DNA from: a virus
DNA length: 45,147 nt
Reading direction: 5' to 3' (one strand)
Virus record (IMG/VR): IMGVR_UViG_3300010311_000419
Shown: positions 17,059-33,285 of the stretch, piece by piece
How positions within the stretch are numbered: position 1 is the stretch's first letter
How the letters are laid out: every line of letters starts with the position of its first letter
Made by a program: the position numbers and the translations under genes
The notes under the pieces: generated by a model
What the model saw: only the letters and a program-made list of their open reading frames with translations
Told to the model about the DNA's origin: nothing
The model's database searches: none

Positions 17059-18216
17059 TTACTCTCTGGTTGCTTTCCTCCCTGCGAAATCTTCCCACCG
17101 CTTTACGATCACGTCGCAATACCCTGCATCAAGTTCCATCATGTAGCACTTGCGATTGAGCTGCTCGCAAGCGATGAGTGTTGAGCCGGAGCCGCCGAAG
17201 GGGTCAAGCACCAGCGTGTTGCTCATGGAGCTGTTCATAATGGGGTACGCCAAAAGCGGGATGGGCTTCATGGTTGGGTGATCGCCGTTTTTCTTAGGCT
17301 TGTCGAACTCCCAGATGGTGGTTTCCTTGCGTCCGCTGTACCACTGGTGCTTGCCGCTTTTCTTCCAGCCGTATAGCACAGGCTCATGCTGCCACTGATA
17401 CGGGGAGCGCCCCAGCACCAGCGACTGCTTTTTCCAGATACAGCAGCCGGACAAATAAAAACCGGCATCCGAAAAGGCTCTCCTGAAATTCAGCCCTTCG
17501 ATGTCGGAATGAAAAACATATATGCTGGCGTCGTCTGCCATGACTGCTTCGGTATTCTGGAACGCTGCCAACAGGAAGCTGTAAAAAGCATCGTTTGCCA
17601 TGTTGTCGTTCTTGATTTTCCCGGCACTGCCTTCATAGTTCACATTGTAGGGCGGGTCGGTCACGACCAGATTCGCCTTCTTGCCATCCATCAACCGCTC
17701 CACATCTTCACGCTTCGTACTATTTCCACAAAGCAAGCGGTGATCGCCAAGTATCCACAAGTCGCCGGCCTTGGTAATTGGTTCTTCCGGTGTCTCGGGC
17801 ACATCGTCCTCGTCCGTCAAACCGGTGTTCATATCCAAATCCATGCCAAAATCCGCTAAGTCAAATCCCAAAGCTTTGAGCTCCGACAACTCCCACTCGT
17901 TCGCCAACATGTCAAAATCCCAATCGCCCGCCATGCCACGTGGAGCATTATCCACAAGGATGAATCGCTTGCGTTGCTCCGCCGTTAGATTAGATGCCTT
18001 GACGATCCAACCGTCCGGGACATCTTTCATACCCAGCTCTTTGATTGCGCGATACCTCATATTGCCGCCGAGTATAATACCTTCATCATCAACAACTATT
18101 GGGCGGAGCGTCATAAACTCCGGATCACGTTTGATTGATTCGCACAATTTTTTGAACGCTTCATCCTTAATTATTCTTGGGTTCTTCGAATTAGCTTTGA
18201 TGTCGGATAAATTCAT
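17059..18216 (-). CDS. ParB-like nuclease domain fused to DNA methyltransferase (N6-A / N4-C class)
   Basis: N-terminal ParB-like segment; VTDPPYN (motif IV) and DPFGGSGST (motif I); GGAGG RBS. Confidence 0.8.
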   Translation of the reverse strand: MNLSDIKANSKNPRIIKDEAFKKLCESIKRDPEFMTLRPIVVDDEGIILGGNMRYRAIKELGMKDVPDGWIVKASNLTAEQRKRFILVDNAPRGMAGDWDFDMLANEWELSELKALGFDLADFGMDLDMNTGLTDEDDVPETPEEPITKAGDLWILGDHRLLCGNSTKREDVERLMDGKKANLVVTDPPYNVNYEGSAGKIKNDNMANDAFYSFLLAAFQNTEAVMADDASIYVFHSDIEGLNFRRAFSDAGFYLSGCCIWKKQSLVLGRSPYQWQHEPVLYGWKKSGKHQWYSGRKETTIWEFDKPKKNGDHPTMKPIPLLAYPIMNSSMSNTLVLDPFGGSGSTLIACEQLNRKCYMMELDAGYCDVIVKRWEDFAGRKATRE

Positions 18217-18338: not shown

Positions 18339-18820
18339 GTGGTATCGTTTTTATCTGTCATCGCTTCCTCATTTATTATCCCCGTTAGCCTCTCCAAACA
18401 GAACCGCTTCATCTTGTACAGCTTACTCGTCGAGCAGTCGAACAACACTGCCAGACGCCGCACCGGCAGCGTCCTAAACTTCATCCGGCCCCACTCGTAC
18501 TCCAGCCACGCGCTCATGGTATTCGCGGGCTCGAAGTCGTGGTTGATATAGCAGTGGAACAGGATCGTGCGGCACTCTCGCGGGAGCTGATTGTACCAGC
18601 GATCGAAGAACTTGATAAACAAACCCGCGCGCACCTGATCGTTCAGGCACGCGAGCTCGTTTGGATGCCCGCTCAGGTACCAGTCGATTTCGCCGGAAGG
18701 CAGAATCACGAGATGCACGCGGCAGCCGAGATAACGTTGCACGTTTGCCTTGTAACTCTGCAGCATCCGCACAACGTCCGCATTGGATACGCGGCTATTT
18801 TTGAGAGTGATATCGCGCAT
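18335..18820 (-). CDS. Putative late-gene regulator (candidate Q-like antiterminator); function not established
   Basis: 161 aa, several Cys/His; last early-arm gene, immediately upstream of promoter-terminator pair. Confidence 0.3.
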   Translation of the reverse strand: MRDITLKNSRVSNADVVRMLQSYKANVQRYLGCRVHLVILPSGEIDWYLSGHPNELACLNDQVRAGLFIKFFDRWYNQLPRECRTILFHCYINHDFEPANTMSAWLEYEWGRMKFRTLPVRRLAVLFDCSTSKLYKMKRFCLERLTGIINEEAMTDKNDTT

Positions 18821-27649: not shown

Positions 27650-29005
27650 TCAAATTTGTTTTTCTTCTGTTTGTATTTTTTCTGATTTTCTGTTAAAGTT
27701 TATTTTCAAAATAGAACGCTGCCAACCATCGCCGTGTTGAAGCATTAGTGCCTTTTTAGTGCTACAACTTATTTCCTTCCCATTTTTATCCCTGATATGA
27801 ACTGTTCCGGCGCTTTTCACCGCGATTGCGCGTCCGGTTATGCCTTTGACTTTTACAAAATCGCCAGTCATGAATCCTTCTTTGGTCTTGTTGCGACTGC
27901 GATGACCTCTTGCAAAGCCATGTTTGTCCGGTATAATCGTTTGTCTGTTTCCACGGCCCATTATCTTGTTTATTGTTGCGTATTGTGTTTTAACATCAAT
28001 GTGCTTATCGCACAAACCAACACAAGCAGCATCAAAATAATGTTCTTTTGGCAACCCTTGATTGTGCCTGTTGAATTTCGTTCTCCCGCCAGAAGCGAGC
28101 TCAACGTCTCCAAATTCCTCTTTGAGCTTGTTGCATAAAACCCATCGGGTTGTGTTTACGCTTGCAGCATCTTTAAGGGTCTGTTTTGCGTCCTTTATCG
28201 CCTTTTCGAAATTTGCGATCATGGTTTTGGCTTTATCGCCTTTTTGTTTTGATAAGTATTCTATATATTCTTTCGGCATCATATTGGACTTCTCTTGATT
28301 GCATTTAACGCAAGCGATTGCGAGATTATCAATGCGGTCCGTGCCGCCTTTGCTTTTCGGAATCATGTGTTCAATTTCAAGAGGAACTTTTTCAGCACCA
28401 CAATAAGCGCATTTCCTACCGTATTTTTCGAGCAAGTATTCTTTCACTTCATACCCGAATAACTTTCCATGTTGATATTCAACGCCAGACACTTCGGGGT
28501 TTGCTAACTTTTGCATATCGAACTTCACGTGTTCAACTGATACAATTTGAATAGGCGCTAATGACTTCATTTTTCTAACTAAGTTAAGAGTTGAGTATAC
28601 TCTTGAAAGCATAGAGGGTGCGAAACGCCCTTTCTTTGTGCTGTTTTTTCTATTGGCCCAACGAGCTGGTCGATACCGTGTGTTTCTGTTTCTGCGGCCA
28701 CGGCGCATTTGCGACCTGTGTTTAAGGTTATCCGCGACCGTTATTTTATGCTTCACTATTCCGGCATAACGTAAAAGTAATTTGTCTTCTTTCTCTTGAA
28801 TAACAGCGATTCCTGTTTCTTTACTTCCGGGATCAATCTTTATTTGTAATGGCTCAACCTTACAATCCTCAACTTCGTTTTTTAGGCGAATCGTAAACGG
28901 AGTGTATTTGTGTATAACTGCTTTTTTGTTTTCGAGTAACTTTCTTGCTCTCTTCTCGGAGCAAGGCATCAAAGGTTCTTTGTGTTTGTTAAGTACGAAT
29001 ACCAT
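27650..29005 (-). CDS. iscB: IscB-type RNA-guided nuclease (PLMP, RuvC-I, bridge helix, HNH, RuvC-III)
   Basis: MVFVLNKHKEPLMP start; IKIDPGSKETGIAV; RSQMRRGRRNRNTRYRPARW; CAYCGAEKVPLEIEHMIPKSKGGTDRIDNLAIACVKCNQEK; KEHYFDAACVG; ~451 aa; AAGGAG RBS. Track start at 29071 rejected. Confidence 0.8.
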   Translation of the reverse strand: MVFVLNKHKEPLMPCSEKRARKLLENKKAVIHKYTPFTIRLKNEVEDCKVEPLQIKIDPGSKETGIAVIQEKEDKLLLRYAGIVKHKITVADNLKHRSQMRRGRRNRNTRYRPARWANRKNSTKKGRFAPSMLSRVYSTLNLVRKMKSLAPIQIVSVEHVKFDMQKLANPEVSGVEYQHGKLFGYEVKEYLLEKYGRKCAYCGAEKVPLEIEHMIPKSKGGTDRIDNLAIACVKCNQEKSNMMPKEYIEYLSKQKGDKAKTMIANFEKAIKDAKQTLKDAASVNTTRWVLCNKLKEEFGDVELASGGRTKFNRHNQGLPKEHYFDAACVGLCDKHIDVKTQYATINKIMGRGNRQTIIPDKHGFARGHRSRNKTKEGFMTGDFVKVKGITGRAIAVKSAGTVHIRDKNGKEISCSTKKALMLQHGDGWQRSILKINFNRKSEKIQTEEKQI

Positions 29006-29351
29006 ACAGGTATCACTCCTTTTATTTACAGCCCGAAGGCTTGCGCTTACGCGCCTTGTAACGCGAGGCATATGCCTCGTCTCTCCTCGACAATGTTATA
29101 ATGCCTTTTTACGAGCCAATCACTTGCGTACCTTCCGTGTTTACAATCGCATGTTTAGACTGGTTCGACAGAGCAGCCGGCTGGAGAAGCACCTGCTGGT
29201 GTCATGAGCAAAATAACGTAGGTCTCTAAGACCTTAGTCTGGACCCGCTTTGTAAATAGATAAGTTACAAACCGCTACACATAAGGTAAAATTAATCCGT
29301 GATTTATGTTACAGCCAAAAAGCAGCGGGCTTGAATGGCTTAACTCAACGG
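29006..29351 (-). ncRNA. Candidate omega-RNA / tracr-like scaffold for IscB
   Basis: Non-coding ~350 nt between array and iscB; consecutive hairpins including CGAGGC-AUAU-GCCUCG, GCGC-GUAA-GCGC (GNRA) and AGCC-UUCG-GGCU (UNCG); 29256-29264 is the exact reverse complement of 9 nt of the array repeat. Boundaries approximate. Confidence 0.5.
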
Positions 29352-29516
29352 GTTGCACCTTATCTATGGTTGGGGCGGGACGTATGTTACGGCGAAGATC
29401 TTTGTATCGACGACGTGCGTTGCACCTTATCTATGGTTGGGGCGGGACAATGGTTAGGCCGTTCCTGGAGTCGATCAGGGATTTTAGTTGCACCTTATCT
29501 ATGGTTGTGGCGGGAC
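29352..29516 (-). CRISPR. Mini CRISPR-like array: three 30-bp repeats, two spacers (37 and 38 bp)
   Basis: Repeats at 29352-29381, 29419-29448, 29487-29516 (third has one mismatch); plus-strand repeat GTTGCACCTTATCTATGGTTGGGGCGGGAC; spacers GTATGTTACGGCGAAGATCTTTGTATCGACGACGTGC and AATGGTTAGGCCGTTCCTGGAGTCGATCAGGGATTTTAG. Strand inferred from iscB. Confidence 0.7.
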
Positions 29517-29866
29517 GACAAGTTATTGTATGATCCCGGCTCGAGGTTATGGCGCTCGGTGCTTGTCAGTGAGCTGGCTGAATCTAAAGAGTAAGAGTAA
29601 GTTATCGTTTGGACGTATCGATTATACCTCAAAAGCATAAAAAAGCAAGCGGCGATTATACAAGAAAAAGCGAGATATACTTAATATGTATATCCCGCCT
29701 GTGTGTAGCGTAATCAGAAGATTCGATGCGGTTATTGTTGGTTTCAATCGTAATGAGAAATCGGCTTTATTTCGCGTTAAAGGCTGAATTCAAGGGGTTT
29801 GGAAGAATTTGCCCATTAACGATACACCACGTGCCGTTTTCAGGCTTCAGGGGTTTGAAATCTTAG

Positions 29867-32257: not shown

Positions 32258-33124
32258 TTTGTAAGTATATTATATCACATAGCATCACTCAACGCAAAAG
32301 GCTACAAAACACGAACCGGCAAACCGTGGGCGCAAACATCTATCTATGAGATGCTCCATAACAAGCGCTATGCCGGAATCTATACCTACCGCGGGAAGAA
32401 GCTCGGAAACAACAGCCACGCCAAACGCACGGATACGATAGAGGTTCCCGGCGTGATCCCGCCTATCGTATCGCCCGAGACATTCGAGCGCGTCAAGGCC
32501 CGATGGCGAACCAACATCACGCGCGCGCAAACCAAACACGCGCACATCTTAACCGGGATCATCTTCTGCGGCGTATGCGGCGCGCCGATGACCCTCACGG
32601 GCGGGCGTTATCCCAAGTATCAATGCTCGCGATGGAAGAATAACCGTGATACCCAATACGTGAGCGCAGGCGCGAAGACGGCAGATAAACGCGTGATCGG
32701 ATACGTTAAGAATATCATTCTCAACGAGCCCGACTTCGAAAAGATCGCCGAGAACTATAACAAGGAACACGCGCTATCAGATATGGCGCTCAAAAGCAAG
32801 GTCGAGGCCATCACCGCGGAACTCGCCGAAGTGAACTCCGGAATCGATAACGCCGTGAGCGCGATACTCAAAGGGATACTATCTGCCAAACTTGAAGAAG
32901 AAGTGAAGCGGTTGGAACTCAGAAAGAAGAAGCTGAACGAAGACCTCTTGAACCTCTCGCAAAGCACCGGGCGGCGCATCACGACCGAAGAGGTAAGAGG
33001 CATATACACGCGCTACGAAGAGATGCTGAACAGCGACGTAACCGAGCAACGTGCTCTTGTGCTTGATCTGATCGAGCGTGTAGAGGTATTCCCGGAAGGA
33101 TTTATGAACATCGCGCCGAAATAG
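32258..33124 (+). pseudogene. Large serine recombinase (integrase), N-terminally truncated: catalytic domain absent
   Basis: Frame open from stop at 32255-32257; ..KGYKTRTGKPWAQTSIYEMLHNKRYAGIYTY.. recombinase domain, zinc ribbon IFCGVCGAPMT...KYQCS, C-terminal coiled coil; no room upstream for the ~140-aa catalytic domain. Confidence 0.55.
32269..32297 (-). promoter_or_regulatory. Candidate promoter for the accessory operon
   Basis: Minus-strand TTGCGT (32297-32292), 17 bp, TATAAT (32274-32269); GAGGGGG RBS before ATG at 32236. Confidence 0.4.
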
Positions 33125-33285
33125 CCTAATTAGGCGCTGAGATGGTGCGGAGCCCTCGGCACCAGCCAAAAGAGCATAGTTAGGCGGTTCGGTATGGTGT
33201 TCGAGGCCGAGCCGTATATCATCGTCGCGGTCCGCCGCGTGGATTGAAACCCATAATAATTTTAGTAGCGAGTTGATAACAAAAA

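Follow-up and report, generated by a model that had tools for sequence, protein, structure and literature searches.

A phage-borne CRISPR-associated IscB locus with spacers probably directed against a satellite-like element

According to PMC10734277, which cites Altae-Tran 2021 for this statement, the nuclease IscB became associated with CRISPR several times, independently of Cas9. One such nuclease, DelIscB, works with a non-coding RNA (ncRNA) that contains repeats, spacers and an anti-repeat, has the target-adjacent motif (TAM) NAC and is active with a 16-nucleotide (nt) guide; its authors left open whether and how the ncRNA is processed (PMC12660989). CRISPR-associated IscBs are seen as intermediates on the way from the transposon nucleases of the obligate mobile element-guided activity (OMEGA) class to Cas9 and have so far been studied as editing tools. 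We found nothing in the literature on their ecology, natural targets or spacer dynamics, and no report of repeat/anti-repeat co-evolution for any of them. CRISPR in mobile elements was reviewed in 2024 without mention of IscB, and that review describes CRISPR as rare in phages of less than 200 kb (PMC11656645). In this work we analysed the IMG/VR virus record IMGVR_UViG_3300010311_000419, a stretch of 45,147 nt that we call the window, which carries at positions 29,352 to 29,516 an array of three repeats and two spacers adjoining an omega-RNA and an iscB gene. We believe, with a probability of roughly 0.8, that the phage here encodes a CRISPR-associated IscB system whose target is a satellite-like element. 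It belongs to a known but rare kind of system; the new aspects are the phage context, the natural targets and their TAM, the turnover of spacers without adaptation genes and a series of co-evolving repeat/anti-repeat pairs.

Like DelIscB and the CRISPR-associated IscBs in general, the locus has a nuclease of about 450 amino acids (aa), a HEARO-type ncRNA upstream of it with repeats, spacers and anti-repeat, no cas1 or cas2, and a TAM on the 3' side. Unlike DelIscB, with its TAM NAC, it has a TAM of approximately N-V-G and resides in a 45-kb tailed phage, the two being compared by description and not by sequence. Both look like intermediates between OMEGA and type II CRISPR. With the OMEGA nuclease OgeuIscB (PDB 7xht) the locus shares the protein architecture, the Rfam RNA family and the position of the guide 5' of the scaffold on the gene strand. 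It departs from the IS200/IS605 type of OMEGA in that no Y1 transposase (TnpA) was found among the Pfam matches listed (E < 2e-9) or the flanking-gene calls, in that an exchangeable spacer array replaces the flank-derived guide, and in the gain of an anti-repeat insertion. As in type II Cas9, and especially the II-D nuclease Cas9d (PMC9755519), there is potential for a bulged repeat:anti-repeat duplex of crRNA (CRISPR RNA) with tracrRNA (trans-activating CRISPR RNA), together with RuvC and HNH domains and a 3' motif. Unlike type II Cas9, the protein has only 451 aa and no recognition (REC) lobe, the omega-RNA scaffold is complete and fused to the proximal spacer, and neither Cas1 nor Cas2 appeared among the Pfam matches listed for the 60 open reading frames (ORFs) of the window or among the precomputed annotations of neighbouring genes.

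On the strand of iscB the order is leader, repeat-spacer-repeat-spacer-repeat, linker, omega-RNA and iscB. The features are the following:

29668-29700, minus strand: terminator-like hairpin that ends the upstream gene, a 13-bp stem followed by a T-rich tail
29517-29668, minus strand: leader-like region with two perfect TATAAT boxes within a 16-nt direct repeat
29487-29516, minus strand: repeat R1*, the promoter-side copy, with a single variant base at 29508
29449-29486, minus strand: spacer 1, 38 nt, in guide sense TAAAATCCCTGATCGACTCCAGGAACGGCCTAACCATT
29419-29448, minus strand: repeat R2, the middle copy
29382-29418, minus strand: spacer 2, 37 nt, in guide sense GCACGTCGTCGATACAAAGATCTTCGCCGTAACATAC
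29352-29381, minus strand: repeat R3, the omega-RNA-proximal copy
29331-29351, minus strand: linker of 21 nt, CCGTTGAGTTAAGCCATTCAA, between the last repeat and the omega-RNA, not a spacer
29076-29330, minus strand: omega-RNA (HEARO) scaffold, the tracrRNA-like partner, with more hairpins 3' of it towards about 29020
29241-29271, minus strand: anti-repeat, consisting of an omega-RNA insertion of about 24 nt plus the 3' strand of stem P1
27650-29005, minus strand: iscB, encoding the RNA-guided nuclease of 451 aa, in an ORF open from 29071

The 30-nt repeat, present in three copies, reads GTTGCACCTTATCTATGGTTGGGGCGGGAC on the plus strand, where the third copy has a G to T change at 29508, and the copies start 67 and 68 nt apart. 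A preliminary description, made from the letters of the window, had given these coordinates and lengths correctly and had recognised a CRISPR array rather than a simple tandem repeat, with spacers acting as guides to external targets; this much of it stands. It had, however, written the repeat on the non-transcribed strand (the functional reading, on the minus strand, is GTCCCGCCCCAACCATAGATAAGGTGCAAC) and overlooked the effector, namely the IscB and omega-RNA that adjoin the array on that strand. Its claim that the spacers match nothing else in the genome holds, since neither spacer has a second copy in the window at up to 3 mismatches, where shuffled sequences lead one to expect 0. It was also right in calling no fourth repeat: what lies beyond 29516 is the leader-like flank, conserved in relatives. 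As findings that would speak against an array it had named intervening sequences conserved as structural RNA and repeats lying in a protein-coding frame; the intervening sequences in fact differ between relatives, and the repeats are non-coding, because the spacers of relatives are unrelated in sequence, 35-40 nt long and not multiples of 3. The repeat itself was absent from a scan of IMG/VR and matched no CRISPR-DR family of Rfam even at E<=1.

Relatives of the locus were recovered by means of the IscB protein; the L-numbered loci mentioned below are metagenome contigs. At least 21 contigs encode an identical IscB (lineage A, that of the window), and the IscBs of lineage B, lineage C and contig L048 are 81%, 87% and 52% identical to it. 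The preliminary description had supposed that the array was probably static, and the comparison of relatives for turnover that it had suggested shows that this is not the case: contigs with a 100% identical IscB have from 1 to at least 4 repeats and different sets of spacers, and lineage B arrays have up to 12 repeats. Across lineages we counted 31 distinct spacers of 35-40 nt, plus one truncation of 20 nt. Many contigs break exactly at a repeat, R3 included, as is expected of a polymorphic array. Constant repeats, spacers that vary among close relatives and matches to foreign DNA, the properties by which a CRISPR array is recognised, are thus found together. Some spacers occur in several arrays with different neighbours (spacer 2, for example, also occurs in L007 at another array position) and one is duplicated within an array, which argues for recombination between repeats besides acquisition. 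In L013 and L019 the omega-RNA-proximal position is occupied by a 20-nt version, ACAAATCCCTGATCGACTCC, of a spacer against the hotspot described below; it is without the repeat-proximal 18 nt, as if by an internal deletion, and the guide should be inactive as a result.

The distance from the end of the last repeat to the ATG of iscB is 346 nt in every lineage-A locus, so that the array keeps a fixed register. The linker CCGTTGAGTTAAGCCATTCAA is near-identical among lineages A, B and C; we considered whether it could be a fossil guide and dropped the idea, as it matches nothing else in any locus compared. It possibly serves as the loop of a cis single-guide RNA and/or as a leader-like anchor. 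The leader-like region is conserved in relatives and partly conserved in lineage B. Its TATAAT boxes, read as ATTATA on the plus strand at 29621-29626 and 29655-29660, make it a candidate promoter for a transcript of array, omega-RNA and iscB, and the hairpin at 29668-29700 marks the 5' boundary of this transcription unit.

The IscB protein has Pfam matches to RRXRR (4e-60) and HNH (2e-13), and all its motifs are present: PLMP, the RuvC-I motif IDPGS, the HNH motif CxxC..H..N..CxxC and the RuvC-III motif HxxD. It thereby has the architecture of CRISPR-associated IscBs, with an RRXRR/PLMP N-terminus, a RuvC domain split by HNH and no REC lobe. A database protein (P0001) is 100% identical to it over 451 aa and begins at the methionine encoded at 29005, which we therefore take as the true start; it is preceded by a ribosome-binding site AAGGAG. 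The closest solved structures are the IscBs TbaIscB (9k30), HfmIscB (9k2z) and OgeuIscB (7xht), whereas Cas9 structures match over the HNH domain only. The omega-RNA matches Rfam RF02033 over the full model (1-211) with 96.5 bits (gathering score 83, E=3e-20), and HEARO is the only Rfam family in the window to reach its gathering score. Two other assignments were tried and set aside. A type II Cas9 is not indicated by a protein of 451 aa that aligns to IscBs, with no Cas1/Cas2 among the Pfam matches listed; a canonical IS200/IS605 OMEGA is not indicated by exchangeable spacers, with no Y1_Tnp among those matches (transposon ends were not specifically searched). Every defining feature of a CRISPR-associated IscB that could be tested was found, and guided, TAM-dependent cleavage would agree with the intact motifs and the TAM.

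The coupling of array and effector is seen in the RNA. The cmscan alignment shows the anti-repeat as an insertion against the HEARO model, and the window HEARO measures 255 nt against 216-236 nt in the closest IscBs that have no array (47-49% identity, in phage-like contexts), where there are neither repeats nor insertion. Three inverted repeats (I2, I6 and I7) link repeat and anti-repeat, with 29256-29274 matching the repeat inversely, and both cofold and duplexfold place the best duplex of the repeat at 29241-29271. As predicted by cofold, this duplex has two helices on either side of an internal loop (7x7). In one of them GCGGGUC, the 3' strand of P1 just before the conserved CCAGACUAAG core, pairs with repeat positions 1-7, and in the other the inserted anti-repeat pairs with positions 15-29. 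The variant base of R1* (29508) falls in the unpaired internal loop, and it occurs in all lineage-A arrays that retain the leader (L001, L002, L005, L006, L036). When the last repeat is folded together with the omega-RNA in cis, the repeat closes onto the anti-repeat; therefore the proximal spacer is physically part of a natural single-guide RNA.

Lineages B and C and L048 each have a repeat of their own and, at the same place in the omega-RNA, an anti-repeat that matches it. RNAalifold recovered both helices unaided from lineages A, B and C; the long helix contains 4 compensatory double changes, and for lineage B the cognate duplex is predicted at -35.4 kcal/mol compared with about -21 for non-cognate combinations. 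The fourth lineage is the most distant case, as the repeat of the L048 array is unrelated to that of the window and still has a matching anti-repeat at the same positions. Since this 52%-identical IscB has its own array, CRISPR association extends over a wider clade of phage-borne IscBs. The L048 repeat is GTTCAACACCCTCTATAAGCGTTTATAAC (arrays at L048:1975-2131 and L050:19-119), and in this phage-like family iscB is flanked by genes for an SNF2 helicase, MT-A70 and NUDIX proteins.

The spacers led to the targets. A blastn search of the spacers against deposited phages gave chance-level matches only (E >= 2). On the plus strand spacer 1 reads A ATG GTT AGG ... and encodes MVRPFLESIRDF. The homologues of spacer 1 in lineage B differ from it only at positions 3 nt apart, and the three versions of spacer 1 all read MVRPFLESIRD on the strand opposite to the guide; because their differences are purely synonymous, the protospacer marks where a conserved gene begins. 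The back-translated pattern of spacer 1, with full degeneracy, had zero matches in IMG/VR and found 24 stretches in metagenomes of the Joint Genome Institute (JGI) and 1 in a metagenome-assembled genome (MAG); 3 of the 25 are arrays and 22 are genuine protospacers. All 22 lie at the ATG of a small ORF, which has 54, 56 or 69 aa in the contigs that contain it entire; the stop of the gene upstream and the start of this ORF overlap. The search for spacer matches suggested with the preliminary description was thus positive: spacer 1 is identical over 38/38 positions in six contigs (L024, L031, L038, L043, L044, L045), where the complete ORF has 54 or 56 aa, the 69-aa form being the allele of other contigs. 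A lineage-B version matches a different allele of the target over 35/35 positions. As spacer versions match different alleles of one site perfectly, they are independent captures from it. Spacer 2 matches the gene upstream of the MVRPF ORF, with 2 mismatches in L042 and 3 in L045 and L046, and the 3' flank of its protospacer is AGG or GGG.

The target contigs were retrieved through spacer 1 only and then compared with all 31 spacers, of which 20, both window spacers among them, matched one element family on both DNA strands, in agreement with the external targets first supposed. The same samples yielded both phages and targets, among them Ga0255343, Ga0255340, Ga0209096 and Ga0116147. Examination of the protospacer flanks, also suggested beforehand, revealed a consistent motif. 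In guide orientation, on the 3' side, 16 of 17 independent sites have G at +3 in each of their best matches; no T occurs at +2 or +4, and both lineages share this pattern. All equally good matches per spacer were counted, with no tie-breaking. Given the base composition observed, 17 consecutive G's would arise by chance with a probability of about 7e-11. The 5' flank gave no signal, and no type I-C protospacer-adjacent motif (PAM; TTC 5' or GAA 3') was seen in the flanks. We infer a TAM of about N-V-G on the 3' side. This is the side read by IscB and Cas9, and the transcribed strand is therefore independently fixed. The one mixed site is the hotspot of spacer 1, where the 3' flank of the perfect protospacers is CGG in 2 contigs and CGC in 4; the CGC forms are candidate TAM-escape alleles. 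The position of mismatches was not used as a measure of guide length, because it is confounded by the many pairs from one hotspot.

The targets form a family of mosaic elements of 6-8 kb. L026 and L027 hold non-identical copies in tandem, which repeat every 6.4 and 7.7 kb. Their genes encode a tyrosine integrase, an excisionase-like HTH_17 protein, a replication protein (either an AAA_25/DnaB-like helicase or a Prim-Pol-D5_N primase-helicase) and small unannotated ORFs; virion genes (capsid, portal, terminase, tail) are absent from them. No terminal overlaps indicative of circularity were found, and L026 and L027 are not simple concatemers. Close homologues of the helicase were found only on contigs of <=5 kb, two of them binned in Thermotogota MAGs, and the element has no match among deposited phages or plasmids. 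A distant subfamily, with a helicase 64% identical, is not matched by the known spacers. Gene content, size and tandem insertion fit the traits of P4, phage-inducible chromosomal islands (PICI) and PICI-like elements (PLE), and short segments are shared with the phage; judged by their genes, the targets would have a satellite-like architecture of the P4/PICI type or that of small integrative islands. In L023 (992-1261, minus strand) a truncated IscB-like N-terminus (MKAYVLNKNKEPLMP...) was observed about 0.6 kb from the targeted ORF, which could be a remnant of an element-borne IscB.

The carrier is a tailed phage, with genes for a large terminase, a Mu-like portal, a major capsid protein and tail proteins, besides RecT/YqaJ, SSB and RusA. 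Because four independent assemblies of it measure 44.9-45.1 kb, the window is probably the whole genome. Alternatively, the same system could be aimed at related temperate phages or phage modules, in inter-phage competition or superinfection exclusion, as viral mini-arrays usually are aimed at related viruses (PMC11656645, PMC6858448). The G+C contents are alike (49.3% in the phage and 49.9% in the target), and an exact 26-mer is common to both. Segment 31362-31582 of the ParB-methylase gene of the phage (30447-31937, minus strand) recurs in targets over 110-216 nt with 83-91% identity (L026:4851-5207, L027:1536-1701, L038:2723-2938, L046:1332-1760), where the pieces form tandem copies of about 108 nt inside small ORFs. 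Moreover, L044:1-253 is 100% identical to window 18350-18602, the 3' end of a 161-aa gene up to its stop, and then switches to target-type genes (a 220-aa ORF and the MVRPFLESIRDF ORF), so that L044 is either a phage-element recombinant or an assembly chimera. Two spacers of other arrays target the element copies of the ParB-methylase segment; since the phage's own copy differs from these spacers at 6 and 9 positions, self-targeting at this gene appears to be avoided. Against related phages as targets stand a repeat unit of just 6.4-7.7 kb with integrase, excisionase-like and replication genes and no virion genes, the confinement of the helicase homologues to contigs of <=5 kb, and the fact that beyond the short shared segments neither blastn nor tblastx detected similarity between phage and targets. 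We regard this alternative as unlikely, though deserving of attention, and prefer a satellite-like element as the target.

The sequence itself shows the anatomy of the locus, the covarying pairing potential of repeat and anti-repeat, the turnover of the arrays, the spacer matches to the elements and the motif beside them. In the mode of action that we propose, a minus-strand transcript would start in the leader (about 29660-29620) and run through the array, the omega-RNA and iscB. Judging from the pairing potential, the 5' GUCCCGC of a repeat would replace the 5' strand of stem P1 of the omega-RNA and the 3' 15-16 nt of the repeat would pair with the insertion. The proximal spacer could then be used in cis as a natural single-guide RNA, and the upstream spacers might be used in trans after processing by a host RNase, like the crRNA:tracrRNA of type II. 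By homology with other IscBs, the repeat-proximal 3' part of the spacer would lead the nuclease to DNA with N-V-G on its 3' side, which it would cut, and in this way the phage may destroy satellite-like parasites or competitors during infection. Spacers would be inserted by host machinery acting in trans, or by another route, and reshuffled by recombination between repeats.

Cleavage of the element could also serve another end. IscB might be a selfish OMEGA nuclease that cuts for homing, recombination or module exchange and not for destruction, given that, by guided cleavage and recombination, canonical IscB and TnpB favour the retention and homing of transposons (PMC10734277). The behaviour of the cassette has some bearing on this. 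When L011, of lineage B, is compared with the window, the phage flanks (31707-29529 and 27518-26532) are 95% identical and the omega-RNA and iscB cassette (29381-27720) only 75%, and in L003 the identical cassette is followed downstream by another backbone (Mom, RNA ligase, DUF932), which points to cassette exchange or very fast evolution at the locus. The IscB-like N-terminus beside the target ORF in L023 and the phage-derived segments in targets would also suit homing. On the other hand, the Pfam matches listed contain no TnpA, transposon ends (not specifically searched) were not identified, no target contig has an intact IscB cassette, and the many spacers, which hit both strands and many of the element's genes, fit destruction better than site-specific homing. 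For these reasons we find homing improbable and continue to favour a system that destroys its target.

It is even less probable that the mini-array borrows a CRISPR-Cas effector of the host and that the adjacent IscB is a coincidence. The termini of the repeat (GTC..., ...GCAAC) are presumably class 1-like in a loose sense, and the phage also has a solitary unit at 33224-33250 which we take to be I-C-like. Small arrays without cas genes are the common viral form of CRISPR (PMC11656645, PMC6858448). The classification as a host-dependent viral mini-array was nevertheless rejected, since a cognate effector and an anti-repeat adjoin the array and co-vary with it: the repeat changes together with the omega-RNA anti-repeat in four lineages, the register of array and omega-RNA is fixed, and array and cassette diverge together while the flanks remain 95% identical. 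To this are added a conserved motif on the 3' side in place of a 5' type I PAM, and the failure of the repeat to match CRISPR-DR families mentioned above. That the locus is a decaying relic, for instance a duplicated 5' end of the omega-RNA, is hardly credible in spite of the very short array, the lack of adaptation genes and the substitution in the promoter-side repeat, given repeats that are otherwise perfectly conserved, a sole substitution that sits in an unpaired loop and is fixed in the lineage-A arrays retaining the leader, intact catalytic motifs, and diverse spacers that often match co-occurring elements exactly and with a consistent TAM.

Several points weigh against a functional IscB system that attacks a satellite. 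Transcription, processing and cleavage are deduced from sequence; a consensus promoter scan called no promoter on the minus strand, and the -35 element is weak. The predicted gain of the window-lineage duplex is modest (-24.0 kcal/mol compared with -16 to -19 for shuffled repeats), the covariation spans only 3-4 lineages, and the omega-RNA retains its own cis 5' strand, GCCCGCUG, a possible competitor for stem P1. Spacer 2 carries 2-3 mismatches to every target found, and 4 of the 6 perfect matches of spacer 1 are flanked by CGC, so that escapers may make up most of the targets sampled. That the targets are satellites is argued from gene content only, and the junction in L044 could mean that the target module is also present in related phages. 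All data come from metagenome contigs, which can be chimeric. As to acquisition, several comparisons of spacer order favour addition at the omega-RNA-proximal end and others conflict, leaving no clean polarity; the negative result for Cas1 and Cas2 covers matches stronger than about E = 2e-9, so that a very weak Cas2-like match is possible; and the proposed model leaves the source of new spacers without explanation.

The turnover of spacers is evident from the relatives, and because the phage encodes no Cas1 or Cas2 among the matches listed, insertion by the host in trans, or by some other route, is probable. A precedent is given by plasmid-borne type IV-A CRISPR, which lacks Cas1-Cas2 and borrows the adaptation of host type I-E systems (PMC11656645). 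Like type IV-A, the present system is carried by a mobile element without these genes and still gains spacers; it differs in effector class, and the borrowing of host adaptation would here be the most economical hypothesis. The broader proposition, that a phage IscB-CRISPR gains spacers in nature without adaptation genes, repeatedly capturing one hotspot from diverged target alleles, and uses them against its own satellite-like parasite, is advanced tentatively, at somewhat less than even odds. If it holds, either host Cas1-Cas2 would act in trans on an IscB array or there would be a Cas1-independent route of acquisition. Turnover without cas1/cas2 makes the acquisition of spacers before Cas9 a testable question.

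The closest ecological analogue is Vibrio phage ICP1, which, as summarised in PMC11656645 from Seed et al. 2013, deploys CRISPR-Cas of type I-F against the PLE satellite. In both cases a phage of ordinary size brings along an effector and an array of its own, its spacers are concentrated on a single integrative element, small and capable of replication, and spacer content varies between isolates. ICP1 differs in having a class 1, multi-subunit system with Cas1-Cas2 where a single IscB is found here, and the satellite character of our target is a deduction. The array also resembles the virus-borne mini-arrays, in which 1-2 spacers carried by a virus are aimed at mobile elements (Medvedeva et al. 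2019, PMC6858448); those use host repeats and host Cas proteins, whereas the present array has its own co-evolving effector and RNA partner. The locus is an apparent case of a 45-kb phage with its own RNA-guided nuclease against a small integrative element. If the broader proposition is true, it would be, to our knowledge, the second example of a phage that counters a parasite by adaptive immunity, with a mechanism unrelated to that of ICP1 against PLE. The locus would also capture the passage from omega-RNA to crRNA:tracrRNA while it is under way, the newest or proximal spacer being still fused to the scaffold; the repeat/anti-repeat pairs of the four lineages show this split of the omega-RNA into crRNA and tracrRNA. 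The locus further supplies a natural target set and a TAM derived from 17 independent protospacer sites, and a nuclease of 451 aa with a short G-containing TAM and naturally multiplexed guides may interest genome-editing groups.

Some other features of the genome should be mentioned. A scan of IMG/VR for relatives of the IscB gave zero matches, and in a megablast search of deposited phages with the locus plus half of the genome, the locus had no match. The only nucleotide match to deposited phages was window 17161-17680 (about 519 nt, 80-81% identity), in a ParB-like/DNA methyltransferase gene, the partners being human-gut Oscillospiraceae phages (PV036423, PV036438, PV036416). The hints as to the host disagree, since this match suggests Oscillospiraceae and the bins of the target elements suggest Thermotogota. 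The ORF at 32351-33124 (plus strand) encodes a serine recombinase with Recombinase and Zn-ribbon domains only; the catalytic Resolvase domain is missing and it is probably a truncated integrase.

At 33224-33250 (plus strand) lies the solitary unit GTCGCGGTCCGCCGCGTGGATTGAAAC, which is intergenic and single-copy in the window and which we take to resemble a type I-C CRISPR repeat. It coincides exactly with a weak match to CRISPR-DR9 of Rfam (15.6 bits, E=0.59), and 26 nt of it are identical in the target elements L029 (2949-2974) and L045 (869-894). The unit may be an RNA anti-CRISPR, and it may hint at a class 1 system in the host.

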